Shown in pieces: positions 15,753 to 35,829 of a DNA stretch of 40,000 bases (positions within the stretch are counted from its first letter, which is position 1; the number at the start of each line of letters is the position of its first letter). Position numbers and translations under genes: made by a program. The DNA is from an uncultured Actinomycetes bacterium (GTDB taxonomy: Bacteria > Actinomycetota > Thermoleophilia > UBA2241), in the NCBI GenBank assembly GCA_963760655.1, contig CAVXDR010000001.1:213007-253006 (forward strand). Direction: 5' to 3'. The notes below the pieces were generated by a model. The model was not told the origin of the DNA, searched no databases, and saw nothing but the letters and a program-made list of their open reading frames with translations.

Positions 15753-15892
15753 TCAGAAGATGACGGGGCGAACGGCGGCGGCAACGCATCGTCTGGCATA
15801 GGATGCTCGCCGGGAGCAGACTCGTCTCCCTATCCGGCCAACTCTGGCGGCCGACCGGGGTCCCTTACGCGCCGCCACACGCGGAGGTAGTC

Positions 15893-17659
15893 GTGACCAC
15901 TGCAAGTGACGCAGCCGCCCCGGCTGCGCTTTCCAAGGTCCCCACCGGCATCCGGGGCTTCGACGAGATCACCGAGGGCGGCCTGCCCAAGGGCCGCGTG
16001 TCGCTCGTTGCCGGGGCAGCCGGCAGCGGCAAGACCGTCCTGGCCATGGGCTTTCTGGTCAACGGCGCCGAGCAGTTCAACGAGCCCGGCCTCTTCGTGA
16101 GCTTCGAGGAGACCGCGCGCGACCTCGTGACCAACTTTGCCTCGCAGGGCTTCGATCTCAAGCGCCTGCAGAAGAAGGGGCTGCTTGCCCTCGACCACAT
16201 CCACGTCGAACGCAACGAGCTCGAGGAGACCGGCGACTACGACCTCGAGGGCCTCTTCGTGCGCCTCGGCGCCGAGATCGACGCCATCAAGGCCAAGCGT
16301 GTCGTGCTCGACACGATCGAGGTCCTCTTCTCGGCCTTCACCAACGAGGTGATCGTCCGCAGCGAGATGAAGCGCCTCTTCCAGTGGCTGGCCGACAAGG
16401 GCGTCACGGCGATCGTCACCGGCGAGAGCGGCGAGAAGACCATCACGCGCCACGGCCTCGAGGAGTACGTCGCCGACTTCGTCGTCGTCCTCACCCACCT
16501 GGTGAACGACGAGACGGCCACCCGGCGGCTGCGCATCGTCAAGTACCGCGGCTCGGCGCACGGCACCAACGAGTTCTCGTTTCTGATCGACCGGCGCGGC
16601 GTATCGGTGCTGCCGATCAGCTCGCTGGGCTTGCGTCACGAAGCCCCGACCGAGCGTCTCTCGAGCGGTATCGCGCGCCTCGACGAGATGCTCGGCGGCA
16701 AGGGCATCTACCGGGGCAGCAGCGTACTGGTGAGCGGCACGGCCGGCACCGGCAAGACCTCGATCGCGGCCCACTTCGTCGACGCCGCCTGCCGCCGCGG
16801 CGAGAAGGCGCTGTACTTCGCCTTCGAGGAGTCGCCGGCCCAGATCGCGCGCAACATGGCGTCGATCGGCCTCGACCTGGACCAGTGGCAGAAGAAGGGC
16901 CAGCTGCGCATCCACTCCGAGCGCCCTCAGAACACCGGCCTCGAGATGCACCTCGTGCGCATGAACCGCGAGATCGAGGAGTTCGCGCCCTCGGTCACCG
17001 TCGTCGACCCGATCACCAACCTGACGAGCATCGGCACCTTCTCCTCGATCCGCTCGACCCTGACGCGCATGATCGACGCCATGAAGTCGCGGCAGATCAC
17101 GGCGCTCTTCACCAGCCTGACCGAGGGCGGCGGCAGCCCCGAGGCGACCGACGTCGGCGTCTCCTCGCTCATGGACACCTGGATCCTGCTGCGCAACCTC
17201 GAGGCGGGCGGCGAGCGCACCCGGGGGCTCTACGTGCTCAAGGCGCGCGGCATGGCCCACTCCAACCAGGTCCGCGAGTTCGTGCTCTCTTCGGACGGTG
17301 TCGACCTGCTCGACATCTACGCCGGGGCCGAGGGCTTCCTGACCGGTGCCGCGCGCTCGGTCAAAGAAGCCGAGGAGCGCGCCGACGCCCTGAGGCGCAG
17401 TCGCGCGATCGAAGAAACCGAGCATGAGATCGCGCGAAAGCGTAAGCTCATGGCGGCCGAGCTGGAGAGGCTCAAAGCCCAGTACGAGGTCGAGATCGAG
17501 ACCCTTGAGAACGCCGTCTTTGAGCAGCGCATGAGGCAAGAGGCCGCCGCCTCAGGCAAAGCCGCGGTGCGCGCGGCTCGCGGCGACGGCGGCTCTCGTT
17601 CCGCCGGCAAGAAGTCGGCCGCGCCTCGCCGCGGCTCCGGGCCGAAGGCACGGCCGTGA
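15893..17659 (+). CDS. kaiC: Circadian clock protein KaiC homologue (double RecA/DnaB-like ATPase) with C-terminal coiled-coil extension
   Basis: TGIRGFDEITEGGLPKGRVSLVAGAAGSGKT (CI Walker A) and SGIARLDEMLGGKGIYRGSSVLVSGTAGTGKT (CII Walker A). GVSSLMDTWILL aligns with HISTITDTIILL, the phosphosite region. GTG 15893 is preceded by GGAGG. The C-terminal roughly 100 aa are heptad-like (EERADALRRSRAIEETEHEIARKRKLMAAELERLKAQYEVEIETLEN). Confidence 0.9.
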   Translation: MTTASDAAAPAALSKVPTGIRGFDEITEGGLPKGRVSLVAGAAGSGKTVLAMGFLVNGAEQFNEPGLFVSFEETARDLVTNFASQGFDLKRLQKKGLLALDHIHVERNELEETGDYDLEGLFVRLGAEIDAIKAKRVVLDTIEVLFSAFTNEVIVRSEMKRLFQWLADKGVTAIVTGESGEKTITRHGLEEYVADFVVVLTHLVNDETATRRLRIVKYRGSAHGTNEFSFLIDRRGVSVLPISSLGLRHEAPTERLSSGIARLDEMLGGKGIYRGSSVLVSGTAGTGKTSIAAHFVDAACRRGEKALYFAFEESPAQIARNMASIGLDLDQWQKKGQLRIHSERPQNTGLEMHLVRMNREIEEFAPSVTVVDPITNLTSIGTFSSIRSTLTRMIDAMKSRQITALFTSLTEGGGSPEATDVGVSSLMDTWILLRNLEAGGERTRGLYVLKARGMAHSNQVREFVLSSDGVDLLDIYAGAEGFLTGAARSVKEAEERADALRRSRAIEETEHEIARKRKLMAAELERLKAQYEVEIETLENAVFEQRMRQEAAASGKAAVRAARGDGGSRSAGKKSAAPRRGSGPKARP

Positions 17660-17961
17660 GCGCGACGCTCGATCGCGCCTCGTCGCCGGAGACCTGGCAC
17701 TTGAGGCTCTACATCGCCGGCCAGACGCCGCGCTCGATCGCCGCGCTTGCGAACCTCAACAGGATCTGCCAGGAGAACCTGGCCGGCAAGTACACCTGCC
17801 AGGTCATCGACCTGCTCGAGAACCCGCAACTGGCCAAGGGCGACCAGATCCTCGCGGTGCCCACGCTGGTCAAGGACGTGCCGCCTCCGCTGCGCAAGAT
17901 CATCGGCGACCTCTCCGACACCGAACGCGTGCTGGTCGGGCTCGACCTGCGGCCGGTCTGA
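17656..17961 (+). CDS. kaiB: KaiB (thioredoxin-like clock protein), copy 1
   Basis: LRLYIAGQTPRSIAALANLNRICQENLAGKYTCQVIDLLENPQLAKGDQILAVPTLVK...IIGDLSDTERVLVGLDL. The GTG start overlaps the kaiC stop (GTGA). Confidence 0.9.
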   Translation: MSATLDRASSPETWHLRLYIAGQTPRSIAALANLNRICQENLAGKYTCQVIDLLENPQLAKGDQILAVPTLVKDVPPPLRKIIGDLSDTERVLVGLDLRPV

Positions 17962-18314
17962 TGGCCAAGCGGGCTGCGCTTGGCGGGGAGAGGTCGCTCG
18001 AAGAGCGCCTGGCCGATGCCGCGGCCGCGCCGGGCGAGGGGCGCTACGTGCTGCGCCTCTACGTGACCGGCCAGACGCCGCGCTCGCTGCGCGCCATCCA
18101 GAACATCAGGCGCATCTGCGAGGAGCACCTGAGCGGCCGCTACGACCTCGAGGTGATCGACATCTACCAGCGACCGAGCCTCGCCAAGGGAGAGAAGATC
18201 ATCGCGGCGCCCACCCTGGTCAAGAGTCTGCCGGCGCCCATCCGGCGCTTCGTCGGCGACCTCTCCGACACCGAGAAGGTCCTTTTCGGGCTCGACCTCG
18301 TTCCCAGGGAGTAG
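17961..18314 (+). CDS. kaiB: KaiB, copy 2 (with N-terminal extension of about 25 aa)
   Basis: LRLYVTGQTPRSLRAIQNIRRICEEHLSGRYDLEVIDIYQRPSLAKGEKIIAAPTLVK...FVGDLSDTEKVLFGLDL. The ATG overlaps the stop of copy 1 (TGATG). Confidence 0.9.
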   Translation: MAKRAALGGERSLEERLADAAAAPGEGRYVLRLYVTGQTPRSLRAIQNIRRICEEHLSGRYDLEVIDIYQRPSLAKGEKIIAAPTLVKSLPAPIRRFVGDLSDTEKVLFGLDLVPRE

Positions 18315-18340
18315 GTCGGGAGCACCCCCAGGCGCACACG

Positions 18341-20506
18341 ATGGCGATGCGGATGGAAAGTCAGCAGGAACTGCTCCGCGAGATCGAGGAGCTGACCCGC
18401 AGGCTGCAGGAGGCCGAGGACACCCTCGAGGCGATCCGCAGCGGCGCCGTCGACGCGCTCGTGGTCACAAGCCCGCAGGGCGGCGAGCAGCTCTTCACCT
18501 TAGACGGCGCCGACCGCGTCTACCGCGTCTTTCTCGAGTCGGTCAGCCAGGGGGCGCTCACGCTCGACCGCGACGGCACGATCCTCTATGCGAACGCCGC
18601 CGCGGCGCGGCTCCTGCCTGTCGGCGCGGGCCTCATCGGCACGAGCCTGCGAACCTGCGTGCGCCGCGACGAGCGTGACTTCTTCGACGCCGTCTTCGAT
18701 GCCGGCAGGCGCGGCGAGACGAGCGCCGAGATCCGCCTGCGGGGCAGGACCGGGGGCCGGCCCGTCTATCTGTCGCTGCGTCTCGTGGAGGATCGCGGCG
18801 ACCAGATGATCGTGGCCGTGCTCACCGACCTCACCGACAGAAAGAAGACCGAGGAGGTGCTCAGGGCGGAGCGGCTCGCCCGCTCCATTCTCGAGCAGAC
18901 CGGCGAGGCGATCCTGGTCTGCGACCGTGACGGCACGATCGTGCGCGCCAGCCGGGCGGTCGCCAAGCTCGCCGGCCAGAACCCGGTCTTGCGGGCCTTC
19001 GCCGACGTCCTGCCTCTGCAGAGCGACGGTCGCCGGCGCTTCTCGCTTACCCGGCGGGCGAACGCCCCGCGGACGCGCGGCCTCGAGGTCCACTTCGAGC
19101 GCTCCGACGGAGCCTCGTTCGACCTGATCCTGAACGCAGACCCGCTGCGCGGCGAGGACCGTGCCCCGCTCGGCACGATCGTCACCTTGACCGACGTCAC
19201 TCGCCTCAAACAGGCCGAGCAGGCCAGGGAGGAGCTGTTGCGCGCGGTCGAGCAGGCCAACAGGGAGCTTGCCGCGATCGAGTCGCTCTCGGTCGCCGGC
19301 CTGGGGCTGGCCAACCTCGATCAGCTCGTGCACTCGATCGTCAGCCAGACGGCGCTGGCGATGGGCGCCGACCGAGCGACGCTCCTGCTGGCCAGGGGCT
19401 CCCGCCTCGAGTCGGTGGCGCGCGTGCCGCCGCTGGAGGCGAACGACCACTTCTCCCTGCCGATCGGCAGCGGCTTTGCCGGCACCATCGCCAAGCTGCG
19501 CCGCAGCCTCTTCGTGGCCGACGTGAGAGCGAGCCAGCTCGTCAAGCGCGAGACCCTCAGGCGTCAGACGGGCTCGTTGCTCGGGGCTCCCATGATCGAC
19601 CGCGACGAATGTCTCGGGGTGCTGCACGTCGGTTGGAAGGCGCGGCACGAGGCCGACGTTCGTCAGCAGCGCTTTCTCGAGATCATCGCGCAGCGCGCCG
19701 CGGCGCTCATCGCGGCCCGCATGATGACCGAGGAGCTCGACGAGCAGCGACTGGCCGCCGAGTCGGCCGCCCGCGAGAACGCGCGGCTTTTCGAGGAGCA
19801 GCAGCGCATCGCGATCGTGCTGCAGAGCAACCTGATCCACCCGATGCCGGCGGTCGCCGGCCTCGACCTGGGCGTGGTTTCGGACGCCGCCAACAAGCCC
19901 GAGCTCGTGGGCGGCGACCTGAGCGACGTCTTCGTCGTCGACGACAGCCATGTCATGGTGCTCATCGCCGACGTCGCCGGCAAGGGCATCCACGCCGCCG
20001 GCCTGACCGAGACGGTGCGCAGCACGGTGCGGGCCCTGGCCGCGATCGACCCGGCCCCGGCGTTCGTGCTGGGCAAGACGAGCGAGCTGCTGCTGCGCTT
20101 CGACCCCGACGAACCCCACGTGACGGCCTTTCTCGCGGCGATCGACCCGCGCACGGGCCACGTGGGCTACGCCAGCGCCGGCCATCCCGCGCCGCTCCAC
20201 CTGAGCGCGACCACGTGTCACCCGCTGCGCGTGCGCTTTGGTCCGCCGCTCGGTTCCTTCGTGCGGCCCTACGCGAGCAGTCACATTATGCTTTCGCTCG
20301 ACGATTACCTGGTCTTCTACACCGACGGCGTCACCGAGGCCCGCCGTGACGGCGAGTTGCTCGGCGAGCAGCGCCTGGTAGAGATCGTCTCGAGTCTGCG
20401 GGGCCGCTCCGCCCAGCAGGTCGCCGAGGCGGTGCGCACCGCCGCCCTCGAGTTTGCCGGACGGCTGCAGGACGACCTCGAGGTGGTGGCGTTGCGGCTG
20501 GCGTAG
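18341..20506 (+). CDS. Coiled-coil/PAS-PAS-GAF-PP2C (SpoIIE/RsbU-type) serine phosphatase
   Basis: ATG 18341 lies 27 nt after kaiB2. PAS cores: GALTLDRDGTILYANAAAARLL and EAILVCDRDGTIVRASRAVAKLAG. GAF: ALAMGADRATLLLARG...LGVLHVGW. PP2C motifs: GGDLSDVFVVDD, VLIADVAGKGIHAA, YASAGHPAP, LVFYTDGVTEA. The upstream part of listed ORF 17747- is off-frame through kaiB. Confidence 0.85.
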   Translation: MAMRMESQQELLREIEELTRRLQEAEDTLEAIRSGAVDALVVTSPQGGEQLFTLDGADRVYRVFLESVSQGALTLDRDGTILYANAAAARLLPVGAGLIGTSLRTCVRRDERDFFDAVFDAGRRGETSAEIRLRGRTGGRPVYLSLRLVEDRGDQMIVAVLTDLTDRKKTEEVLRAERLARSILEQTGEAILVCDRDGTIVRASRAVAKLAGQNPVLRAFADVLPLQSDGRRRFSLTRRANAPRTRGLEVHFERSDGASFDLILNADPLRGEDRAPLGTIVTLTDVTRLKQAEQAREELLRAVEQANRELAAIESLSVAGLGLANLDQLVHSIVSQTALAMGADRATLLLARGSRLESVARVPPLEANDHFSLPIGSGFAGTIAKLRRSLFVADVRASQLVKRETLRRQTGSLLGAPMIDRDECLGVLHVGWKARHEADVRQQRFLEIIAQRAAALIAARMMTEELDEQRLAAESAARENARLFEEQQRIAIVLQSNLIHPMPAVAGLDLGVVSDAANKPELVGGDLSDVFVVDDSHVMVLIADVAGKGIHAAGLTETVRSTVRALAAIDPAPAFVLGKTSELLLRFDPDEPHVTAFLAAIDPRTGHVGYASAGHPAPLHLSATTCHPLRVRFGPPLGSFVRPYASSHIMLSLDDYLVFYTDGVTEARRDGELLGEQRLVEIVSSLRGRSAQQVAEAVRTAALEFAGRLQDDLEVVALRLA

Positions 20507-24806: not shown

Positions 24807-25098
24807 TCCGAGTAAGACGCTACCACCAAACGGCGAGACCCGCGAGGGGCGAGCCGCGCAGTGGCGGTGAGGCGGTGCCGGTAGCCGTCACCCCCAACGA
24901 TGGCCTCAGCCGGCGGGCGGGTCCCTGAGCGCGTCGCCCGGCCAACGGCCGCCTGGCGAGCCGCGTCCGCAGTCCTGCACCCGCCGCCTGCCGGTCTGTC
25001 GACGACCGGCGGCAGATGGGCGGGCCGCGCCAAGCGCGGCAAGCTGGGCTTCGGGATGTGTGCAGGTTTGTGCCGCTTCGGGTGCCTCCGTCTACGTA

Positions 25099-25130
25099 CC
25101 CCCCCACCGGTTGACGGGATAGGAGATAGG
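25099..25130. repeat. Left junction of putative transposon: direct repeat CCC-CCCCACCGGTTGAC followed by 15-bp terminal inverted repeat GGGATAGGAGATAGG
   Basis: 25102-25115 is identical and in direct orientation to 35845-35858. 25116-25130 is the exact reverse complement of 35830-35844. Confidence 0.6.
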
Positions 25131-25361
25131 CGAGAGAAAAGTGAGCTATTGCGTTGCATCGACCGACAACGGGGGCCGCCTCGCCACCGCTTCGCCTTCG
25201 GTCCGGGGTGAGGGCTCACGGGCGACGTGTCCGGGCTGGCTCCGCGCTGCGCGGCGGCTCGCCTACCTGCCGGGGTCGTCGTCGGGGTGACGGGTGAAGA
25301 GGTCGCCCTGGGTTTCCGGTGTGGTCGCCCCGGTGGCGGGGGGGAGCTTGCGTGCCCCGCT

Positions 25362-26423
25362 TCAGTCGCTCGGAATGTTCTTGGCCGCGACTCCACAGAA
25401 AGAGGGGTGAGGAGCCGTCGACTTAGCCAACGTCCAACTCGTGCCACCATCGGTCGTGGCCAAGAGCGCCATGCCGTCCGTGACGACCCAGCCGTGCTGT
25501 TTGTCGGCGAATGAGACCGCGCTCGGATCCCAACCAACAGGCAAGCGGCTGAGCGTCCACGTCTTGCCGCCGTCGGTCGTGCGATAGAGAAGGCCGCCGT
25601 TGCCCACGACCCAGCCGTCGCTCGCATTCACAAACGAGACGCTGTTGAGGCCGTCGTGTGTCCCGGACAACTGCGTGTGCCAGTGCCTGCCGCCGTCGCT
25701 TGTGGCGAGGATGAAACCCGGCTCACCACCGACAATCCAGCCGTGTCGTGCGTCGGTGAATGTCACGTCCGTCGGCAACAGGTCCTTCAAGTCGCGTTGG
25801 ACGCGCCAGTGGGCACCGCCATCGCTTGTCACCAGAATGTCGCCACTCCAGCCCACGGCCCAACCGTGTCGTGCATCGGGAAAGGCGACACCTGTAAGGT
25901 TCTCGAGGCTGCCTTCGTACTGGGTGCGCCACCTCTTGCCGCCGTCGCTGGTGGCGAGGATGATGCCCGGAATCTGCTGGCCCACATTGTCGAAGCCGAC
26001 GACCCAGGCGTGCTCGGCGTCAACTGCCGCCACGGCTACGAGGTTCTCAGCAGATGAGCTGCGCTGCGTGGTCCAAGTCACGCCGCCGTTTGTCGTGGCG
26101 AGGATCGTGCCGCCCTTGCCGACGGCCCAGCCGTGGCGGGCGTCCGCGAAGGCGACGCCGCGCAGAAGCTGGTAGGCGAGGTTTCCGCTTGCGTCCTTGT
26201 GAGCGGTGCGCCAGGTCGCGCCGCCGTTTGTGCTCGTCACAACGAGGCGCGGCATGCCGACGACCCAAACATCGGCACCGGGTCGCACGGAAAGCGGCTG
26301 ACTGGGCGTCGTCATGAGCTTCTCGAACCACGAGGCCATTTGGGGGTGCGATCCGCACGAAGAGGCGCATGCCACGACGACGAGCAAACCGGCGAGTGCC
26401 GTGAGTCGCAGGATGCGCTTCAT
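25362..26423 (-). CDS. Ycf48/Hcf136-like BNR-repeat beta-propeller lipoprotein
   Basis: Signal and lipobox: MKRILRLTALAGLLVVVACASSCG. It carries repeated blades (T/S)xDGGxxW (STNGGATW, TTNGGVTW, TSDGGKRW, TSDGGAHW, TSDGGRHW, TTDGGKTW, TTDGGTSW) interleaved with ARHGWAVG-type strands. Start is preferred at ATG 26423 (SD-like GGTGGG). Confidence 0.8.
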   Translation of the reverse strand: MKRILRLTALAGLLVVVACASSCGSHPQMASWFEKLMTTPSQPLSVRPGADVWVVGMPRLVVTSTNGGATWRTAHKDASGNLAYQLLRGVAFADARHGWAVGKGGTILATTNGGVTWTTQRSSSAENLVAVAAVDAEHAWVVGFDNVGQQIPGIILATSDGGKRWRTQYEGSLENLTGVAFPDARHGWAVGWSGDILVTSDGGAHWRVQRDLKDLLPTDVTFTDARHGWIVGGEPGFILATSDGGRHWHTQLSGTHDGLNSVSFVNASDGWVVGNGGLLYRTTDGGKTWTLSRLPVGWDPSAVSFADKQHGWVVTDGMALLATTDGGTSWTLAKSTAPHPSFCGVAAKNIPSD

Positions 26424-26605
26424 GTCCCACCATATCGGCATTCGTGGTAATCAGCTCAACCAGGGTGCTCGTACCATCATGCTCCCGGCCCGTGGCGAGC
26501 AGGTCCGCCGGGCTCCCCCCGGTGTGGTCGCTCCCGGTGTCGGCGGTGGGCAGGGGGTCGGCGGGTCGACTGGCGCGGGACGTACGAGGACTGGAGTTGG
26601 AGTTC

Positions 26606-26708
26606 CACTGGCGCATTTTCGGCCAGCGCCGCTCGCCAATTACCGACTCGCCGCGCTCGGCCGTCAACCCCGCGAACGCGATACTCAATTACCTCTACGC
26701 ATTACTTG
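26606..26708 (+). pseudogene. Isolated 103-bp fragment of a second, diverged Cas1-family gene
   Basis: It encodes HWRIFGQRRSPITDSPRSAVNPANAILNYLYALL, colinear with aa 32-65 of the Cas1-like ORF at 28029. By manual alignment there are about 15 mismatches in 103 nt. It ends exactly at the IS3 terminus. Confidence 0.6.
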
Positions 26709-26760
26709 TGGAGTTGGAGTTGACCCGCTTTCGTTGACACCCTGAAAGTGGACACCAGCG

Positions 26761-27063
26761 GTGTCCGAGAAGGGAGTCAGCGTGGCGTACACGCCGGAGT
26801 TTCGGAGCGAGGCGGTCAGGCTGTACCGCGTCGGCGGACGTGGGGTCAAGGTGACGGCGCAGCAGATCAGCGTCGCGCCCGGCACCTTGCGCAAGTGGGT
26901 CCACCAGGCCGAGATCGACGAGGGTATCGAGGACGGCCTGACCAGCGAGGAGCGTGCCGAGCTGCGGCGCCTCAGGCGTGAGGTGAGGATCTTAGAAGAG
27001 GAGAAGGAGATCCTGCGCAAGGCAGCGCTTTTCTTCGCCCGGGAGACCGATCGTCGGCGATGA
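26761..27063 (+). CDS. IS3-family transposase OrfA (HTH + leucine zipper)
   Basis: [13 protein letters not shown]...[16 protein letters not shown]...[33 protein letters not shown] is the typical IS3/IS911 OrfA. Confidence 0.85.
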
Positions 27064-27950
27064 GGTTCCGGCTGATCGATGAAGAGAAGTCATGCCACTC
27101 GATCTCCCGCCTGGCCCGCGTGCTCGGCGTGACCGCCGCGGGCTACCACGCCTGGAGGAAGCGTCCACCCTGCGCGCGCCGGCTTGCCGATGCACGCCTC
27201 AAGGAGCGCATCGCCTGCCACTTCGCGGCCAGTCAGGGCACCTACGGCTCGCCGCGCCTGCTCGACGATCTGGCCGACGAGGGCATCCGCGTCTCGCGCA
27301 AACGCATCGCTCGTCTCATGGGCGAGATGGGCATCGCCGGTGTCTCGGGACGCGAGGGCAGGCGCCGGCGCCGCAAGGCCACCGCGCCCGAGAGCGCGCC
27401 GGCGAGAGACCTCGTGCGTCGCGACTTCACCGCCGGCGAACCCAACCAGCTCTGGTTTGCCGACATCACCTACGTGCCGACCTGGGAGGGCTGGCTGTTT
27501 CTGGCCGTGGTCATGGACGCCTGCACCAAGCGCATCGTCGGTTGGTCGATGCGCGACGACCTGAGGGCCGACATCGTCATCGACGCGCTGGGCATGGGAA
27601 CGACCATGCGCCGGCCGCAGGCCGGCCTTGTCCATCACTCCGATCGCGGCGCCCAGTATCGCTCACTGGCCTTCGGCAAGACGCTGCGCGACTGCGGCAT
27701 CCTGGCGTCGATGGGCGAGACCGGCGTTCCTCATGACAACGCCGTGACCGAGTCGGTGATGGCGACCATCAAGAAGGAGTGCGTGCACCGCCACCGCTTC
27801 AAGACCAGAGACGAGGCGCGGTTCGCGATCTTCCGCTACATCGAGGGCTTCTACAACCCGCACCGGCGGCACTCGTCACTGGGCAACTTGTCGCCGGCGG
27901 AGTTCGAGCGGAGACTGGAGCAGCAGCGGCCTGCCGCGGCCGCGTGCTAG
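27060..27950 (+). CDS. IS3-family transposase OrfB (DDE/rve integrase core)
   Basis: LWFADITYV (D), [11 protein letters not shown] (D) and [17 protein letters not shown] (E), followed by [20 protein letters not shown]. It is in the -1 frame relative to orfA, with an ATGA overlap. Confidence 0.9.
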
Positions 27951-28028
27951 TTCGCAGGTATCAACGGAACTGGGGCAACTCCATCACGGGAAATCGCGGA
28001 AAATGCGCCGTCAATTCCCGGAATACTA

Positions 28029-29057
28029 ATGTGCGAGGCACAAGGCGCGCTGGCTTATTGGGGAGCCTGGAAAAACGTTTCCCTGCGTTTTGCCAGAAAA
28101 GACAATAAATCAATTCCTGAGCACTGGCGCATTTTCGGACAGCGCCGCTCGCCGATAACCGACTCACCACGCTCGGCCGCCAATCCCGCGAATGCCATGC
28201 TCAATTATCTGTACGCGCTGCTTGAGGCAGAGGCTCGTTTTGCCTGTCTCGCCTGCGGGCTCGATCCGGGGCTCGGCGTATTTCACGCCGACCAGAAATC
28301 ACGCGACTCGCTAGCACTCGATCTGATGGAGGCGGTCAGGCCGCAAGTCGACGCCTATCTGCTCGACCAGATCGAAACGCGGACTTTCAGCGCCAAGGAT
28401 TTTATCGAGACGAGAAAGGGCGTCTGTCGAGTGCTCGCGCCGCTCACGCATACGCTCGCCGAGACAACACCGCGATGGGCAAAGGCCGTTGGCCCGGTGG
28501 TCGAGAACGTCACCGCGATGCTCGCTTCGGACGGTAGTCTGCAACTGAGCTTGCCGACGCCGCTCACTCAATCAAACCGCAGTTTGGGGCGCGGCAGGGT
28601 CCGTCGTAATCCAAAGCGGACTGAGTCGTCGAAGGCGAAGCTCGCGCCGACCTGCGCCACCTGCGGTGGACCGCTGCCGAGTGTGGATCGCATGGTCTGC
28701 GACGACTGCCTGCCCGGTGAACGGGAGCGCCACAATGTCGGGTTCGTCGCAGCGGGTGCGGCCGGGCTGGCGAAGATGCAGGCGGAAGGGCGCAACTGGA
28801 TGGACAGCGAGCAGTCCAGGCGCAAGCTGGGGCAGTCGAACGCAAAGCGGCAGCGCGAGAGAATCGAGTGGGAGCTCACACACGAGAAGCCCGACCCCGA
28901 GGTCTTCACGCGCGAGATCCTGCCAATGCTTCAGACGGTGACGCTGCCGCAGATGAGGGCGGCGACGGGGCTCTCGACAACGATGTGCGCGAGGATTCGG
29001 CGGGGGTACGTGCCACACCCGAGGCATTGGAACAAGCTTCGTCGGCTTGAGGTCTAG
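28029..29057 (+). CDS. Cas1-family integrase-like protein lacking the N-terminal domain (truncated by the IS3 element), with C-terminal Zn-ribbon and HTH-like extension
   Basis: Cas1 catalytic-domain motifs: ILMCEAQGALAYW (Glu), NPANAMLNYLYALLEAEA, GLDPGLGVFHAD (His), SLALDLMEAVRPQVD (Asp/Glu). In-frame homology continues upstream to the IS boundary at 27987. The C-terminus has CATCGG...CDDC and LPQMRAATGLSTTMCARIRRGYVPHPRHW. No cas2, other cas genes or CRISPR array are in the window. Confidence 0.75.
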   Translation: MCEAQGALAYWGAWKNVSLRFARKDNKSIPEHWRIFGQRRSPITDSPRSAANPANAMLNYLYALLEAEARFACLACGLDPGLGVFHADQKSRDSLALDLMEAVRPQVDAYLLDQIETRTFSAKDFIETRKGVCRVLAPLTHTLAETTPRWAKAVGPVVENVTAMLASDGSLQLSLPTPLTQSNRSLGRGRVRRNPKRTESSKAKLAPTCATCGGPLPSVDRMVCDDCLPGERERHNVGFVAAGAAGLAKMQAEGRNWMDSEQSRRKLGQSNAKRQRERIEWELTHEKPDPEVFTREILPMLQTVTLPQMRAATGLSTTMCARIRRGYVPHPRHWNKLRRLEV

Positions 29058-29069
29058 AGCACTTCCGGC

Positions 29070-29897
29070 TCAGGCCAGCCGCAGGACGACCACCTGCATG
29101 TCGTCTCTCAGGCGGCCGTCGGCGAACTCGGATGCGGCGTCCCGCACGCCATCGGTGACCTCCTGCGCGGAGCAGCCACGTAGACCCTCGACGATCTCGA
29201 GCAGCCGCCGCTCTCCGAGCAGCTCGCCGTCGCGGCGTGCTTCGGTGACGCCGTCGGTATAGAGCACGAGGCAGTCTTCGGGCGTCAGCATCGTGTGGGA
29301 CTCTTTGTAGGAGTGCGAGAAGGTGCCAAGCGGCGGACCGTAGACCACAGCGAGGGAGTCGCACGTATTCGCGCCGAGGTGGACTGGCGCGGGATGACCG
29401 GCGCTCGCGTAGCTCAGATGGCCGGTGTGCGGGTCGAGCACGGCGCAAAAGGCGGTCACGTGGGCCTCGTCGGGATCGTAGCCCAGGAGCAGCTCGCTGG
29501 TCTTCCCCAAGATGAAGGACGGCGACGGGTCGATCGCGGCCAGTGCCCGCACCGTGCTGCGCACGGTCTCGGTCAGGCCGGCGGCGCGCACGCCCTTGCC
29601 GGCAACATCGCCGATCAGCAGGACGACGTGCGACTCGTCGCCGACGAAGACGTCGCTGAAGTCGCCGCCCACGAGCTCGGGCTCGAAGGCGGTCTTTGTC
29701 ACCATGCCCAGCTCGAGGCCGGCGACCGCGGGCAGCGCGTGAAGGAAGTTCTCCTGCAGCGTTGTGGCGATGCGCTCCTGCTCTTCGTAGAGGCGGGCGT
29801 TGGCAAGGGCCGTCGAGATCGAGGCGGCAAGCTTGCCGGCGAACTCGACGATCTCCGGCGGGAAGGCGACGGCCGCCTCGTGGTGGTTGAAGAAGAT
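29070..29897 (-). pseudogene. 3' segment (end of GAF + PP2C phosphatase domain) of the giant sensor gene split by the IS66-family insertion
   Basis: It reads FFNHHEAAVAFPPEIVEFAGKLAASISTALANARLYEEQ... then PP2C motifs GGDFSDVFVGDE, LLIGDVAGKGVRAA, YASAGHPAP and LVLYTDGVTEA. It joins in frame to 31460-35296 once the IS and one TSD copy are removed. Confidence 0.85.
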
Positions 29898-31451
29898 GTA
29901 AGCGTTCAGTTGGTCCGGCCATGCAGCTGAGCAAGAGGCCGAGGGCCATGAGGCAGGCACCTGCTTCTGCGCAGCGAACCCTCGGCCATGGAGCGCGCCG
30001 AGGCGGAGGCGATCTACGACCAGGGACGCGAGGCGGTGGTCGCGGCGCTCCTCGCGCTCTCGGCTCAGGTCGCCGCCCTGGAGGCGCGCCTTGCCAAGCA
30101 GGAGGAGCGCATCGCCGAGCTTGAGCGACAGCTCAGGCGCAACTCGCAGAACTCCTCGCTGCCACCGAGCGCCGATCCGCCTGGGGCGCCGGCCCGCAGG
30201 CGGCCACCATCCTCAGGCGGCAGACGCGGCGCCCAGCACGGTCACAAGGGCCACGGCCGACACCTGGCCCCGATCGAGGCCGTCGACGAGCTCATCGATC
30301 ACTGGCCCGAGCACTGCGCCTGCGGCCACCGCTTCACCCCGGAAGAGCGTCACCCCGTTGGCAACCCGGCCCGATGGCAGGTCGCCGAGCTGCCCGCGAT
30401 CGCCATCACCTTAAGCGAGCACCGCCTCCATCGCCTGCGCTGCCCCGCCTGCGGTGCGATCACCCGCGCAAAGCTGCCCGCGGATGTGCCAGAGAGCGCC
30501 TTCGGCCCGCGCCTGTGCGCGGCGGTCGCCACCCTGGCCGTGCGCAACCGCGTCTCCCGGCGCGATGCGGTCGAGCTGGCCGGCGAGCTGTTTGGCGCCC
30601 GCCTCTGCGCCGGCACGGTCGATGCCATCCTGCGGCGCGCGGCGGCGGCGCTTGCCAGGCCCTACGAGGAGCTGCTGCACGAGACCCGTGCCTCGCCCGC
30701 CGTCAACGTCGATGAGACCGGCTGGCGCCTGCGCGGCGGGCGGCGCACCCTCTGGGGCGCTCTCACGCTTCGGACCGCGGTCTTTCGCATCGCCGCCGAC
30801 CGCCACGAGCGCGAGGCCGTGGCCCTGCTCGGCGAGCGCTTCGCAGGGATCACCTGCAGCGATCGCTGGTGGGCCTACAACTACCTGGATGTGGAACGGC
30901 GCCAGCTCTGTTGGGCGCACCTGACCCGCGACTTTCGGGCACACAGCGAGGGCCTCGGCCTGCAGAGGCAGTTCGGCGAGGCTGGCCTTGCGATCAGCGA
31001 GCGTCTCTTCGCCGCCTGGGGCGACTACCGGCTCGACGGCGACCGCGAACGCCTCGCGGCGCGCATCGGGCCCCTCAAGGAGGAGCTGCGGGCGCTGCTT
31101 GAGGAAGCGGCGCACAAGAGCCCCCGCAACCGCCAGCACCGCACCTTCGCCAAGAACCTGCTCAAGTGCTGGCCGGCGCTGTGGACCTTCGCCAGCGTGC
31201 CCGGCGTGGAGCCCACCAACAACCAGGCCGAGCGCGGGTTGCGTGGCGCGGTCATCTACCGCAAGCTCTCGCTGGGCAGCCAGTCCGAGGACGGCGAGCG
31301 TACCATCGAGCGGCTGCTCTCGGCCTCGGTGACCTGCCGCCTGCAGAAGCGCTCGCTCTTTGCCTACCTCAGCGAGGTCCTGGCCGCCAGCGCCCGCGGC
31401 GATCCCGTCCCCTCACTGGTCTGACCGAGTGCACACCGACTGAACGCTTAC
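29898..31451 (+). mobile_element. IS66-family insertion sequence, single-ORF (ISBst12-like) type, 1554 bp
   Basis: The inverted termini are GTAAGCGTTCAGTTGGT (29898-) and the reverse complement of ACCGACTGAACGCTTAC (-31451). They are flanked by a perfect 8-bp direct repeat AAGAAGAT (29890-29897 and 31452-31459). Confidence 0.9.
29988..31424 (+). CDS. IS66-family transposase (TnpC-like)
   Basis: The N-terminal leucine zipper is LSAQVAALEARLAKQEERIAELERQL. The Zn-finger region is HCACGHRF...RLRCPACG. It also has DETGWR, CWAHLTRDF and NNQAERGLRGAVIYRKLSLGSQSEDG motifs. Confidence 0.9.
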   Translation: MERAEAEAIYDQGREAVVAALLALSAQVAALEARLAKQEERIAELERQLRRNSQNSSLPPSADPPGAPARRRPPSSGGRRGAQHGHKGHGRHLAPIEAVDELIDHWPEHCACGHRFTPEERHPVGNPARWQVAELPAIAITLSEHRLHRLRCPACGAITRAKLPADVPESAFGPRLCAAVATLAVRNRVSRRDAVELAGELFGARLCAGTVDAILRRAAAALARPYEELLHETRASPAVNVDETGWRLRGGRRTLWGALTLRTAVFRIAADRHEREAVALLGERFAGITCSDRWWAYNYLDVERRQLCWAHLTRDFRAHSEGLGLQRQFGEAGLAISERLFAAWGDYRLDGDRERLAARIGPLKEELRALLEEAAHKSPRNRQHRTFAKNLLKCWPALWTFASVPGVEPTNNQAERGLRGAVIYRKLSLGSQSEDGERTIERLLSASVTCRLQKRSLFAYLSEVLAASARGDPVPSLV

Positions 31452-34400
31452 AAGAAGATGACGCCGAGCACCTCTTCTCTGACGATCAAGGGGATGCACA
31501 GCACGGAGCGCACCCCGAAGCGACGCTGCACCTCGGGGAGGCAGCGCGGGTCGCTTTCGCAGTCGTCGATGGCGATCGGCCGGCGCTCGGTCACGGCCAT
31601 GACCATGAAGGGCGCCTCGTCGGTGCGCACGCATTCGTGGATCAGCCCGGGGACCTCGGGATAGCCGTACTCGGCCACCCAGTCGTCGCCGTGGCGCAGC
31701 GCGACCATGGCGCTGTCGGATCCGACCGCGGCGACCGCATGCTCGACGACCGTCTGCATGATCTCGCGGCTATCGAGCGTCGAGTTGATCAGGCCGTTCA
31801 TCTCGTTTAAGACCTCGGTCAGCTCGGCCGCCGCGGCCTCACGCTCGGCGCGCTCGTGCAGCTCATCACGTTGGGTCGACAGCTCCTCACCGGCCGCCTG
31901 CAGCTCCTCGGTCTGCAGCTGGAGTCTCCGAGCGAGCTCCTCGACGCGCGCTTGCTCGGCGAGTTGGGCCTCGCGAGCGGCGTCGGCGCGAACCAGGGCG
32001 ACCGCGGCCGCGCGACGACGCTCGGCCTGCTCGCTTAGGGTCTTGGCGAGAAAGCCGGAGAGCAGGCCAGCCGCCACCCAGACCGCCGTCGATATCAGCG
32101 TCGTTGGTACGGTGGACAGGCTGCCCCGCCCGCCCACCGTCAGGTAGAACGCCCCGCCACCGGCGATGGCCACGAGCGCACCGAAAGGCGGGCCCGCCAG
32201 GGCGCCGGCGATGACTGAGAACAGCGCGATCATGGAGCCTGGCAGGCCCAAGACGTGGCGCGGGCTATGTGCGCTGTTCAGCGCCAGGAGGATCGCACTC
32301 TGGATCGCGATCGCACCGGCGAGCACGCGCCAACGATGGCCTCGGAAGCGGTCCACAAGCCGAGTGGTGCGGCTCCCCGGCAGGTGCTCGTCAAGCCGTG
32401 CGGCCTCGGTCTCGCGCTCGAGCAGCGCGCGCTCGGCTTGCTTACGGGCGCTGATGTCGGTCACAAACGAGCGGTAGTGCAGGAGTGTGCCGTCCTCGTC
32501 GAAGATCGGCTGCACGAGCAGCTCGATCGGCACGCGGCTGCCGTCCTTGCGCAGGTACTCCTTCTCGTAGGACACAGGGTGGCGTTCGCTCACCGCCCGC
32601 GCGAGGATCGTTGCCTCGGTCGCGCGCCACTCGGGCGGCGTCAGGTCGGTCGACCAAGTGAGCGCTCTCTCGTGAAGCTCGGCGCCGCTGTAGCCCGTCA
32701 GCCGCTCGAAGGCTTCGTTGAACAGAAGGAGACGACCATCGGGCGCTCCCATCCCGAAGGGCATCGCGGACTTCTGCAGCACATCGGCCAGGAGATGGGC
32801 GTTCTCCTCGCTCTCGCGCAGCGCCTCTTCGGCGCGCTTACGCTCGGTGATGTCGCGGTTGGACTCAAGGACGCGCTCGACTCCGTCTTCGCCCACCACG
32901 AGCTGAAGCCGCGATGCTACGGTGACTTGGCGGCCGTCCTTGGCGCGGTGGACAAGCTCTCCCTCCCAGCTCTCCCGTGTGTGGAGGGCGTCTTCGATTG
33001 TGGCCCACGGTTGCGGGAAGGCGGTGCGCAACAGGTCGCGAGTGACTCGGCCGATCGCCTCTTCTACACCGTAGCCGTAGAGCTGCTCGGCGCCACGATT
33101 CCAAGACTCGATCGCACCGCCGAGACGCCAGACGATGATGGGCTCGAAGGACAGGTCGAGCAGCTCGGCTTGGCGCTTGGCTTCCTGCTCGGCCAAGGTG
33201 CGCTCAGTGGTGTCGATGAACACCGTCGCGAAGCGTCCCGGCTCGGTCTGGTAGGCGCTCACCTCAAACCAGCGCCCCAGCGGTCCGAACTGCGACTCGA
33301 AGTGAGCCGGCTCGCCGGTCAGGGCCACCTTGCCGTAGATCTCAAACACCGGGTCGTCGGCGGCATCGGGGAAGAGCTCAAGCGTGGTGTGCCCCAGGAT
33401 GTCTGCGGCCTTTAAGCCCGTGTGGCGCTCGAAGGCGGGGTTGACCGAAAGGTAGCGCAGATCGTAGGGCTTGCCGTTCTCGTCGCAGATGATCTCGTCG
33501 AGGGCGAAGCCCTCGCTCATCGTGTCGAATAGGGTGCGGTAGCTCCCCTCACTCTCAAGCAGCGCCTCCTCGGCGCGTTTGAGGTCCGTGACGTCGTTGC
33601 CGATCGCCAGGATCTCAGCAACCTTGCCTTGGTCGTCAAGGATCGCCCGATTGGTCCAGTTCAGCCAGAGGCGACGGCCGTCCCGGCAGATGTTCTCGTT
33701 GGTGTTGTGCTCGTAGCGGTCGGGGTGCTTGACGATGTCGCTGACGAGGCCGGTCGGGTCAGTCCCGTCCGACTCCTGCTCTGGAACCAGGATGTTCACC
33801 GACTTGCCGACGGCCTCCTTGGCACTCCAGCCGAAGAGCCTCTGGGCGTACCCGTTGATGAAGGTGATCCTGCCGTCACAAGACCACCGCACGATCGCGC
33901 TGTTGGCGTTCTCCACGAGCTCACGGTAGCGACTCTCGCTACGCCGCAGGGCCTCCTCTGCTGCCTTGCGCTCGGTGACGTCGCTGTGCATGATCAGGTT
34001 CGCGATGTGGTTGCCTTGGGCGTCGAGGAGGGGAGACGCACTGTAGCGCGACCACAGAACCGCGCCGTCCTTGCGGCGCAGCTTGACCTCGCGGCGCAGC
34101 ACCTGGCCCTCATGAAGTTCGGCCCGTGCGTCGTCGGTTTCGGGCTTCCAACCTTCAAAGACGAGGTCGGAACCGGACATGCCGAGCAGCTCCTCGACTG
34201 AGTAGCCCAGCATGTCGGCCATGCGCTGGTTGGCAAACTGAAAGGCCCCCTCTGGCGCGCCGATGACGATGCCCTCGGTCGAGTTCTCGACCATGGCGCG
34301 GTACTTGGCCTCGCTCGCCCGGAGAGCCGCAAAGTACTGCTCGCGCTCCTCCTCGATGCGCTTACGCTCGCTGATCTCGTGGCCGAAGACGCTGACGCCT

Positions 34401-35296
34401 GAAGAGGTCGGGTAGAAGCGCGCCTCGATCCAGTCGCCTGAGATCTCAGTCTGGTACTCGAGCATCGAGAAGCGTCCCAGCTCGATCGCCTCGCGGAGGG
34501 CCTTACCCTCGACCGAGTCGCCCAGGGTCGGGGCGAACTCCCAGACGGACCTACCGATGAGCTCCTCGCGACTGCTACGCAGGAGGCGCAGGGCAGCCTC
34601 GTTGAGGTGTTGGTAGCGGTACTCCCAATCGATCACCATGACGAACTCGTCGACCTCGTCGAGCAAAGCTTGCCCGCGGGACTCGCGCTCGCCGGCAGCA
34701 CCGCCGCCATAGGTCTCGAAGGGGATGCCCTCCGGAATGGAGGGCTTACAGCGCGCTTCGGCGTGTCGCGTCATGCGCACCTCGAGGCCACCGTCAACGC
34801 TCAGTTTCAACGAGTCCATGAGCTTGGCGACGATGAACAGGCCGCGGCCGTGGTCGGACAGGACATCGGGCACAGAGTCACGATCGAAGCTCGTTACGTC
34901 GAAGCCTCGGCCGTGGTCTTTGACCACGGCGAGCAGGTCGCCGTTGACGAAGCGCAGCGAGATCTCGATGTCGTGCTCGCTGCCGCTGTGACGGATGGCG
35001 TTGGTCGCGGCCTCCTCGACGCAAAGCACGACGTCGTCGATGACCTCGGGCTCGGTGCAGTACTGGCGCAGGTAGTCACGAATGCGGTCGCGGGCGCGCA
35101 GCAGGTGGGAGGGCTCGGACGGGACGCGGAAGAGCAGGCGCGGTGGCGCGATCTGAGGCTTAACGTCGCTCTGCGACAACTGACTCCCCCGCACGGGCTT
35201 GCTTCGAGGGGAACGAATGGCGCTCAGTGTACGCCGAAGGTACAGGAAGTTGCGACCGTTCCAGGCCTCGAACAACCTTTGTGATGAGTCGCACAA
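31448..35296 (-). CDS. 5' segment of giant sensor: RsbW/SpoIIAB-like Ser kinase (HATPase_c) + 6 PAS + about 4 TM + coiled coil + GAF (interrupted; stop supplied by the IS66 end)
   Basis: The N-terminus has VLCVEEAATNAIRHSG...VKDHGRGFD...DHGRGLFIVAKLMD. Six PAS cores each end in a D(V/I)TERK-type linker. The TM block is RWRVLAGAIAIQSAILLAL...AVWVAAGLLSGFLA. The GAF runs MQTVVEHAVAAVGSDSAMVAL...VLGVIF. The terminal TAA lies inside the IS terminus GCTTAC. The true start may be the TTG at 35179, preceded by GGGGGAG. Confidence 0.85.
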   Translation of the reverse strand: MCDSSQRLFEAWNGRNFLYLRRTLSAIRSPRSKPVRGSQLSQSDVKPQIAPPRLLFRVPSEPSHLLRARDRIRDYLRQYCTEPEVIDDVVLCVEEAATNAIRHSGSEHDIEISLRFVNGDLLAVVKDHGRGFDVTSFDRDSVPDVLSDHGRGLFIVAKLMDSLKLSVDGGLEVRMTRHAEARCKPSIPEGIPFETYGGGAAGERESRGQALLDEVDEFVMVIDWEYRYQHLNEAALRLLRSSREELIGRSVWEFAPTLGDSVEGKALREAIELGRFSMLEYQTEISGDWIEARFYPTSSGVSVFGHEISERKRIEEEREQYFAALRASEAKYRAMVENSTEGIVIGAPEGAFQFANQRMADMLGYSVEELLGMSGSDLVFEGWKPETDDARAELHEGQVLRREVKLRRKDGAVLWSRYSASPLLDAQGNHIANLIMHSDVTERKAAEEALRRSESRYRELVENANSAIVRWSCDGRITFINGYAQRLFGWSAKEAVGKSVNILVPEQESDGTDPTGLVSDIVKHPDRYEHNTNENICRDGRRLWLNWTNRAILDDQGKVAEILAIGNDVTDLKRAEEALLESEGSYRTLFDTMSEGFALDEIICDENGKPYDLRYLSVNPAFERHTGLKAADILGHTTLELFPDAADDPVFEIYGKVALTGEPAHFESQFGPLGRWFEVSAYQTEPGRFATVFIDTTERTLAEQEAKRQAELLDLSFEPIIVWRLGGAIESWNRGAEQLYGYGVEEAIGRVTRDLLRTAFPQPWATIEDALHTRESWEGELVHRAKDGRQVTVASRLQLVVGEDGVERVLESNRDITERKRAEEALRESEENAHLLADVLQKSAMPFGMGAPDGRLLLFNEAFERLTGYSGAELHERALTWSTDLTPPEWRATEATILARAVSERHPVSYEKEYLRKDGSRVPIELLVQPIFDEDGTLLHYRSFVTDISARKQAERALLERETEAARLDEHLPGSRTTRLVDRFRGHRWRVLAGAIAIQSAILLALNSAHSPRHVLGLPGSMIALFSVIAGALAGPPFGALVAIAGGGAFYLTVGGRGSLSTVPTTLISTAVWVAAGLLSGFLAKTLSEQAERRRAAAVALVRADAAREAQLAEQARVEELARRLQLQTEELQAAGEELSTQRDELHERAEREAAAAELTEVLNEMNGLINSTLDSREIMQTVVEHAVAAVGSDSAMVALRHGDDWVAEYGYPEVPGLIHECVRTDEAPFMVMAVTERRPIAIDDCESDPRCLPEVQRRFGVRSVLCIPLIVREEVLGVIFL

Positions 35297-35349
35297 GCTT
35301 GACCGAGGCCCTTACGGCGCGGAGACTGGCGACAACGATCGGGTAGCTG

Positions 35350-35724
35350 ATGGAGTACGAGGTGGCAGACAGTCCGCAGTTCCAGGTCGAGCTCAGTAGG
35401 CCCAGCGCCGACGTCGCCGTCGTTGAGCTGAAGGGCGAGGTCGATCTCTACACCTCGCCTCAGTTCAAGGACGCTCTCTTGCAGGCCATCGGCGAAGGGA
35501 CCGCGCGCGTCGTTGTTGACTTAAGCCAGGTTCGCTTCATCGACTCGACAGGGCTCGGCGTCGTGGTCGGCGGCATCAAGGCGGTCACGGCTCGTGGCGG
35601 CACCCTCGACCTCGTCTGCCCCGAGGGGCGCATCAGGCGCACTTTCGAGATTACGGGTCTGGACCGAATCGTACACATCCACCACTCGCGCAGCGACGCG
35701 CTGGCGGCTACCTCGGGGGACTAG
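35350..35724 (+). CDS. STAS-domain anti-sigma-factor antagonist (SpoIIAA/RsbV-like)
   Basis: VAVVELKGEVDLYTSPQFKDALLQAI...VVVDLSQVRFIDSTGLGVVVGGIK...GTLDLVCPEGRIRRTFEITGLDRI carries the conserved DSTGLG phospho-Ser motif. An alternative start is GTG 35362. It is divergent from the giant kinase/phosphatase gene. Confidence 0.85.
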   Translation: MEYEVADSPQFQVELSRPSADVAVVELKGEVDLYTSPQFKDALLQAIGEGTARVVVDLSQVRFIDSTGLGVVVGGIKAVTARGGTLDLVCPEGRIRRTFEITGLDRIVHIHHSRSDALAATSGD

Positions 35725-35829
35725 CTCAGCAGTCCTTGGCAGCGCGCGGAGCTTTCCGGGTGTCGTTCTGAAGGTGCCAACGACCTTCCTTCTTCCGGTC
35801 TTGTCACGCTAGGGCGCGTTTCGCCGGCC

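Follow-up and report, generated by a model that had tools for sequence, protein, structure and literature searches.

The stretch of DNA considered here (the window; 40,000 nucleotides, positions 213,007 to 253,006 of contig CAVXDR010000001.1, hereafter contig C1, in assembly GCA_963760655.1) comes from an uncultured Actinomycetes bacterium of the class Thermoleophilia, and it carries the gene for a giant sensor protein that lies back to back with a gene for a single-domain STAS protein belonging to the type known as anti-sigma-factor antagonists. The sensor gene occupies 29070-35296 of the minus strand, and a divergent intergenic region of ~170 bp (35180..35349) separates its start codon from that of the STAS gene, which lies on the plus strand (35350..35724) and encodes 124 amino acids. 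Open reading frames (ORFs) and Pfam searches place both genes where an earlier note, made from the sequence alone, had put them. That note described the repaired sensor as a single polypeptide with opposing kinase and phosphatase activities at its two ends, and proposed that it forms a self-contained switch of at least uncommon architecture with the STAS protein. In the DNA as assembled, the minus strand between 29070 and 35296 holds two separate ORFs rather than one, and an insertion sequence (IS) lies between them.

The interrupting element is 1,554 bp long (29898..31451, plus strand) and has all of the features of the IS66 family, namely a DDE_Tnp_IS66 transposase, terminal inverted repeats and an 8-bp target duplication. 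The 478-residue transposase (29988-31424, plus strand) contains DDE_Tnp_IS66, DUF6444 and zf-IS66 domains and matches PF03050 at E=6.6e-33; with the NCBIfam model transpos_IS66 (NF033517), whose cut-off is 180 bits, it reaches 268.5 bits. The inverted repeats (GTAAGCGTTCAGT, starting GTAAGCG) are complementary at 17 of 18 positions, and the target-site duplication (AAGAAGAT, 29890-29897 and 31452-31459) is perfect. The transposase gene is the only ORF of the element, which lacks tnpA and tnpB and presumably corresponds to the ISBst12-like subgroup.

Insertion occurred within the GAF domain of the sensor, and the last ~25 residues of this domain together with the PP2C domain are lost from the reading frame. 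The N-terminal fragment (31448..35179, minus strand), which includes the kinase domain, the six PAS domains, the four transmembrane (TM) helices, the linker and most of the GAF domain, ends at a TAA codon (31448-31450) supplied by the end of the IS (TTG TAA GCG). The C-terminal fragment (29070..29897, minus strand), which includes the end of the GAF domain and the SpoIIE/RsbU-type PP2C phosphatase, has no start codon of its own, and the ORF listed for it (29070-29960) begins at a GTG within the IS. Counted from the left end of the IS, this GTG is 63 nt in, and it opens a minus-strand frame that reads into the GAF-end/PP2C piece; a hybrid phosphatase-only product initiated there is conceivable but unsupported.

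Excision in silico of the IS and one copy of the target duplicate restores a single in-frame ORF, in which ...VLGVIF is joined to FNHHEAAVAF..., and neither half of the gene has any further stop or frameshift. Elsewhere in the assembly the IS occurs just once more, at the very end of contig C1 (C1:766932-768450), as a copy that is 100% identical; this repeat probably broke the assembly at that point. The identity of the two IS copies and the lack of other lesions in either gene half show that the insertion is recent.

Three start codons can be considered for the sensor. TTG 35296 gives the longest ORF, of 1,282 residues as interrupted (31448-35296) and 1,554 residues after repair. GTG 35194 was chosen by the gene caller (product P0001, 1,248 residues), while TTG 35179, which has GGGGGAG just before it and agrees with the N-termini of homologues, gives a repaired protein of 1,515 residues. 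The homologues share the N-terminal sequence MSQS..(A)PPRLxFRVPPEPSHLLRARERIRDYL, which aligns with LSQSDVKPQIAPPRLLFRVPSEPSHLLRARDRIRDYL in the window, indicating that translation starts at TTG 35179 or GTG 35194. Both codons are upstream of the kinase domain, which removes the earlier concern that the true start might leave this domain out. Residues of the sensor are numbered here from TTG 35179.

The N-terminal domain of the sensor (residues ~14-140; 34760..35140, minus strand) is an RsbW/SpoIIAB-type serine kinase domain of the GHKL class. It matches Pfam HATPase_c_2 with 79 bits over profile positions 1-126 of 127 and aligns with the structure of Bacillus subtilis RsbW (6M36, E=3e-10), while its best NCBIfam matches, both below cut-off, are to the anti-sigma-B factor RsbW and the RsbA anti-sigma family. 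The ATP-binding residues, whose loss would have undermined the assignment, are present in the N box (EEAATNAIRH), the G1 box (DHGRGF) and the G2 box (GRGLF), and the key positions (E56, N60 and H64; D88, G90 and G92; G111-R-G-L114) are invariant or nearly so among 19 family members. Six PAS domains follow (residues ~160-925; 32405..34702, minus strand), each recognized as one stretch by PAS_4 and by TIGR00229, and each ending in an S-box motif of the D(I/V)TERK type (residues 268, 400, 529, 656, 776 and 908).

Hydropathy predicts a four-helix membrane module next (residues 952-1046; 32042..32326, minus strand). Since the number of TM helices is even, both catalytic ends are expected to be cytoplasmic. 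The module is kept in 32 of the top 120 homologues, and in the window protein and 16 homologues Pfam returned only sub-threshold and inconsistent matches for it, to DUF4118, 5TMR-LYT and ECF_trnsprt. It is followed by a helical linker of ~85 residues rich in A, E, R and Q, a putative coiled coil read from the sequence (31775..32041, minus strand), and by the N-terminal ~108 residues of the GAF domain (31452..31774, minus strand), for which the GAF_2 match spans profile positions 2-108 of 136 and stops at the end of the ORF. The PP2C domain on the other side of the IS (~29076-29636, minus strand) matches Pfam SpoIIE with 154 bits and aligns with the structures of Rv1364c (3KE6, E=2e-10, the best match), Pseudomonas aeruginosa RssB and SpoIIE. 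Its metal-binding motifs (GGDF, DVxGKG, which is DVAGKG here, TDG and DD) are invariant across 61 sequences. Pfam and hydropathy thus bear out the proposed domain order of kinase, six PAS, four TM, GAF and PP2C, but the order exists as one ORF only once the IS is removed, and the two activities share a polypeptide in the repaired frame and not in the present genome.

The STAS protein matches Pfam STAS with 83 bits and TIGR00377 with 96 bits against a cut-off of 53, and it aligns with RsbV (6M36_B) and SpoIIAA. Its predicted phosphorylation site is Ser66 (codon 35545-35547), which is located in the motif FIDSTGLGV of the RsbV/SpoIIAA type and is the conserved serine that had been singled out in DSTGLG.

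Proteins that combine these activities have been described in several bacteria, and the same order of parts is reported for OsaC of Streptomyces coelicolor, which belongs to the same phylum (Actinomycetota). According to published descriptions, OsaC (SCO5747) has an N-terminal kinase domain that binds SigB (PMC10117811) and has PAS and GAF domains ahead of the phosphatase (PMC10117811, PMC12143880). In its central part the window sensor, unlike OsaC, has six PAS domains along with a four-helix membrane module; it also adjoins a STAS gene rather than osaA/osaB (no osaA- or osaB-like genes were seen beside it), and it is split by an IS. In Vibrio fischeri, SypE has an N-terminal serine kinase and a C-terminal PP2C domain and controls phosphorylation of the STAS protein SypA at Ser56 (PMC10120452, PMC8256260). 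As with the window pair, this system consists of one dual-enzyme protein and a single-domain STAS protein, and it has no known sigma factor output. SypE is nevertheless a soluble proteobacterial protein encoded in a polysaccharide locus, and its central input is a REC domain fed by a phosphorelay where the window sensor has six PAS domains, the TM module and GAF.

A second group of fusions has the kinase domain last. HsbR of P. aeruginosa and CrsR of Shewanella oneidensis have the order REC, PP2C and kinase/anti-sigma domain; both catalytic domains control the STAS antagonist (HsbA or CrsA), and RpoS is bound (PMC6482189). These proteins resemble the window sensor in fusing PP2C to an RsbW-type kinase and, if the neighbouring STAS protein is the substrate here, in directing both domains at one STAS antagonist, but differ from it in that the window sensor is kinase-first. 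Rv1364c of Mycobacterium tuberculosis, another actinobacterial fusion of sensor, PP2C and RsbW-like kinase, places PAS, PP2C, kinase and STAS in one chain (PMC12143880) and, unlike the window sensor, has a single PAS domain and no membrane module. The RsbU/RsbV/RsbW-SigB and SpoIIE/SpoIIAA/SpoIIAB-SigF modules of Bacillus employ the same three domain families and the same STAS phospho-serine motif; in these modules, however, kinase and phosphatase are separate proteins and the sigma factor gene is in the operon, neither of which is the case at the window locus.

The fused architecture is also abundant among relatives of the window sensor. A search of 5.8 billion proteins returned 1,828 homologues at E<=1e-3, and nearly all of the best 120 have both PF13581 and PF07228. 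When the end domains of these 120 were placed by BLAST, 113 turned out to begin with the kinase and to end with PP2C; of the remaining seven, five had no detectable kinase match and two, P0053 and the truncated product of the window itself, had the kinase without PP2C. The genome to which the window belongs (assembly of 4.16 Mb, 96% complete, 5% contamination) contains 11 kinase-first fusion genes, this copy included, among ~20 PP2C domains.

A scan of species-representative genomes identified 61 loci with kinase domains 48-80% identical to that of the window, all of them in metagenome-assembled genomes (MAGs) of uncultured Thermoleophilia/Actinomycetota from soil, bog and palsa. Together with four further loci (L001-L004), these include 41 in-frame kinase-first fusions and 16 more in which PP2C is in another frame. 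This tight family turned up in 12 of the 20 genomes sampled from the same GTDB family and in none of 100 from other families of the class, and other families in a 300-genome sample of the phylum gave weak kinase matches only. All 14 long ORFs fetched from other Actinomycetota families (L091-L104) have PP2C first and an RsbW-like kinase at the C-terminus, which is the order of HsbR and CrsR; two of these ORFs also have a STAS gene or domain downstream.

According to the homologue and phylum surveys, Actinomycetota routinely fuse the two activities. Of the two orders, kinase-first is the rarer one; it was seen among the sampled genomes only in the window's own GTDB family and is strongly expanded in this lineage. 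Co-occurrence of HATPase_c_2 and SpoIIE/PP2C in one protein, which had been proposed as a check on uncommonness, is thus widespread, and given the 113 homologues of the same order, the 11 genes in one genome and the published precedents, the description of the architecture as at least uncommon has to be given up.

At 16 of the 57 family loci in MAGs the kinase and PP2C domains are in different frames of the same strand (L005, L012, L016, L017, L022, L024, L055-L057, L064 and L065 are among them). These frame splits reflect either frameshift errors of long-read assembly or frequent pseudogenization of these very long genes.

The STAS gene beside the sensor is part of a pattern. Among 50 homologous fusion loci for which 1.5 kb or more of upstream sequence was available, eight have a STAS gene within 2.5 kb upstream (five divergent and three on the same strand), as do three of the 11 kinase-first copies in the window's own genome, where 16 STAS matches in 4.16 Mb lead one to expect ~1% by chance. 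The related loci are not independent, which bears on how these counts are to be read, but adjacency is strongly enriched, far above chance, and supports a functional link without showing a self-contained switch. In other MAGs, the STAS proteins encoded beside the sensor share 47-55% identity with that of the window. In a tree of the kinase and PP2C domains of 52 sequences, most of the STAS-adjacent copies fall in one well-supported clade of 24 members that includes the window copy, a distribution that fits an ancestral sensor-STAS adjacency followed by repeated loss. Within this tree the window copy groups with L002 and L006, but because this grouping is weak (82/79) no donor can be named. Since the four closest homologue loci, those of P0014, P0002, P0005 and P0015, have no intact STAS gene, "recurrent, enriched adjacency" describes the relation better than "conserved gene pair".

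Small stand-alone RsbW-like genes often form triads with these genes, in which the small RsbW gene and the STAS gene are divergent and the large sensor is downstream of STAS. Three other loci of the window's own genome combine kinase-first and STAS genes. Two of these (C3:75999-81885 and C3:5024-6370) are triads of this type, and the sensor at C3:5957, in a frame of 1,195 residues, has no PP2C domain. The third (C1:715014-720443; sensor at C1:715014-718892) has a STAS remnant of 79 residues and a sigma-70 gene ~1 kb away.

Taken together, these observations lead us to read the locus, with a probability of roughly 80%, as an OsaC/SypE-type dual regulator that an IS has disrupted and that belongs to a lineage-specific family found in one GTDB family of Thermoleophilia. 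The N-terminal kinase boxes, the C-terminal PP2C motifs and the single-domain STAS partner that define this class are all present, whereas both domains and a sensory middle on one chain are found only in the pre-insertion allele, so that the present copy is a disrupted member. From this anatomy, the conserved motifs, the family and the recurrent STAS neighbour we infer a substrate, a direction of regulation and an output as follows.

Before the insertion, the gene would have encoded an inner-membrane protein of 1,515 residues with an RsbW-type serine kinase at its N-terminus and a PP2C phosphatase at its C-terminus. Six PAS domains, the four-helix module, the linker and GAF would lie between the catalytic ends, with the PAS domains, the TM module and GAF serving as signal inputs. 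Ser66 of the divergently encoded STAS protein is the residue on which both catalytic domains most likely act. The kinase domain would phosphorylate this residue, and signals received through the PAS, TM and GAF inputs would be relayed by the helical linker to switch on the PP2C domain, which would then dephosphorylate the STAS protein; linker-mediated control has been described for RsbU-type phosphatases (PMC12143880). The phosphorylation state of the STAS protein would in turn set its binding to the kinase/anti-sigma domain or to another partner. By precedent, the outcome could be that the kinase domain plays the part of anti-sigma factor to a sigma factor whose gene lies elsewhere, or that the STAS protein engages some other STAS-binding target. 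Such a mechanism is reasonable but already known from other bacteria, and it introduces no new signalling principle.

Several observations weigh against this reading. Forty-two of the 50 homologous loci and eight of the 11 copies in the genome have no adjacent STAS gene, meaning that the pairing is not obligatory. None of the four closest homologue loci that were inspected first (L001-L004) has an intact STAS neighbour, and L003 has only a STAS remnant of 60 residues. The genome contains ~16 STAS domains and several small RsbW-like kinases, and the cognate substrate could consequently be another protein. Finally, since the gene is broken here, its present-day function is uncertain.

With regard to output, it is possible that the main role of the N-terminal domain is that of anti-sigma factor, similar to OsaC and CrsR, and that it sequesters an alternative sigma factor encoded elsewhere until the STAS protein, dephosphorylated by PP2C, displaces it. 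This explanation is compatible with membership in the OsaC/SypE-type family and would specify the output of such a regulator. It draws on the interaction of the OsaC kinase domain with SigB (PMC10117811) and the binding of RpoS by the CrsR and HsbR kinase domains (PMC6482189), as well as on the best NCBIfam matches of the window's kinase domain, which are to the RsbW and RsbA anti-sigma families even if below cut-off. A profile search recovered 22 matches to Sigma70_r2 in the genome, and the paralogue at C1:715014-718892 has a sigma factor gene beside its STAS remnant. The same search found no Sigma70_r2 match in the 40-kb window, consistent with the initial observation that no sigma factor gene is nearby; the closest matches on contig C1, of which the window covers 213-253 kb, are at 18.5 kb and 490 kb. 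Given this gap, and given that SypE-SypA and HsbA also act on non-sigma targets, a primarily anti-sigma role is a tentative proposal, with the odds somewhat against it.

The opposite possibility is the one raised at the outset, that is, a novel and uncommon switch in which the giant sensor alone writes and erases the phosphate on the STAS protein and no sigma factor is involved. Both catalytic domains and the STAS phosphorylation site are intact by motif, the two genes are divergent and ~170 bp apart, no sigma factor gene is within the 40-kb window, and SypE-SypA provides a precedent for a sigma-independent pair of dual enzyme and STAS protein. Novelty, however, is contradicted by the abundance of the architecture and by prior publication of the principle. 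Self-containment is difficult to reconcile with the IS that splits the gene in this genome and with the lack of a STAS neighbour at most paralogues, while the sigma-70 gene ~1 kb from the STAS remnant of one paralogue argues against a sigma-free system. Cross-talk is likely in a genome with several small RsbW-like kinases besides its ~16 STAS domains. A switch of this kind is therefore improbable, and of the proposed conservation of the gene pair what survives is an adjacency above chance that is absent at most loci.

By placing the IS in the GAF domain, the insertion has uncoupled the halves and leaves at best a kinase-only fragment of 1,243 residues, with the PP2C part startless; the switch is thus broken or locked. 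The locus is either dead or a source of the kinase-only fragment. The first of these outcomes has nearly an even chance of being correct: the pieces would be a dead pseudogene inside a mobile insertion in decay, with no expression at all, and the STAS gene would be left as an orphan. This outcome accounts for the cut GAF domain and the startless PP2C piece, and it agrees with the position of the pair inside a larger insertion that contains Cas1 remnants and an IS3 element and is missing from same-genus genomes (see below). On the other hand, both fragments and the STAS gene lack further stops and frameshifts, the identity of the IS copies implies little time for decay, and the N-terminal fragment retains its promoter side and an intact kinase domain, from which a kinase-only product could be made.

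The enclosing insertion is 10.7 kb long (25116..35841) and was delimited by its terminal repeats and by empty sites in other genomes. It contains a repeat-protein gene, the Cas1 remnants, the IS3 element, the sensor gene and the STAS gene, and it is flanked by an exact 17-nt direct repeat (CCCCCCCACCGGTTGAC; 25099-25115 and 35842-35858) as well as 15-nt inverted repeats. Two genomes of the same genus (G009 and G008) have the site uninterrupted, with one copy of the direct repeat joining the left and right flanks, and the insertion that holds the sensor-STAS pair is therefore strain-specific. In the end regions of the insertion (25074-25130 and 35817-35858) the direct repeat can be followed over 42 nt with an identity of 74%, and the right terminal inverted repeat as delimited (CCTATCTCCTATCCC) recurs in part, with two mismatches, at the empty site of G008. 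Some of this terminal repeat may be native target (att-like) sequence, and the true ends of the element need to be defined with care.

On one strand, immediately within the left end (25434-26146), repeats of 123 bp (a period of 41 residues) occur four to five times in tandem. They suggest a repeat protein of the beta-propeller or BNR-like kind; the sensor homologues in L002 and L003 also have PSII_BNR proteins as neighbours.

The presence of Cas1 remnants allows a further interpretation in which the sensor-STAS pair is cargo of a Cas1-bearing, casposon-like insertion, a portable two-gene phospho-switch that was later hit by the IS. The pair does lie inside an insertion that same-genus genomes lack, but joint arrival with Cas1 is not thereby implied. 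No Cas1 homologue or terminal-repeat motif was found near any homologous sensor locus, and the idea of a conserved casposon cargo was dropped as unsupported for this reason. The GC content of the sensor gene (66-68%) is inside the range of its own paralogues (66-74%) and is uninformative about a foreign origin. The cargo interpretation is thus unlikely; were it true, the pair would have been moved among Thermoleophilia genomes by a self-synthesising or Cas1-dependent transposon.

Elsewhere in the window (15764-20506), a gene for a 933-residue PAS-PAS-GAF-PP2C protein comes after a kaiC gene with two KaiC domains, and both are on the same strand. The 933-residue protein has no kinase domain and is a second PP2C sensor in the window.

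For annotation, the two ORFs and the IS belong together and should be recorded as one interrupted gene. The four-helix module of the sensor, which roughly one in four homologues carries, could be an input domain of a new kind. The clean cut by which the IS separates kinase from phosphatase constitutes a natural experiment that would be usable if the organism or its genes were studied. For the family as a whole, the locus draws attention to a single uncultured family of soil and peat Thermoleophilia in which the OsaC-like, kinase-first form of this regulator has reached up to 11 copies in a 4-Mb genome.

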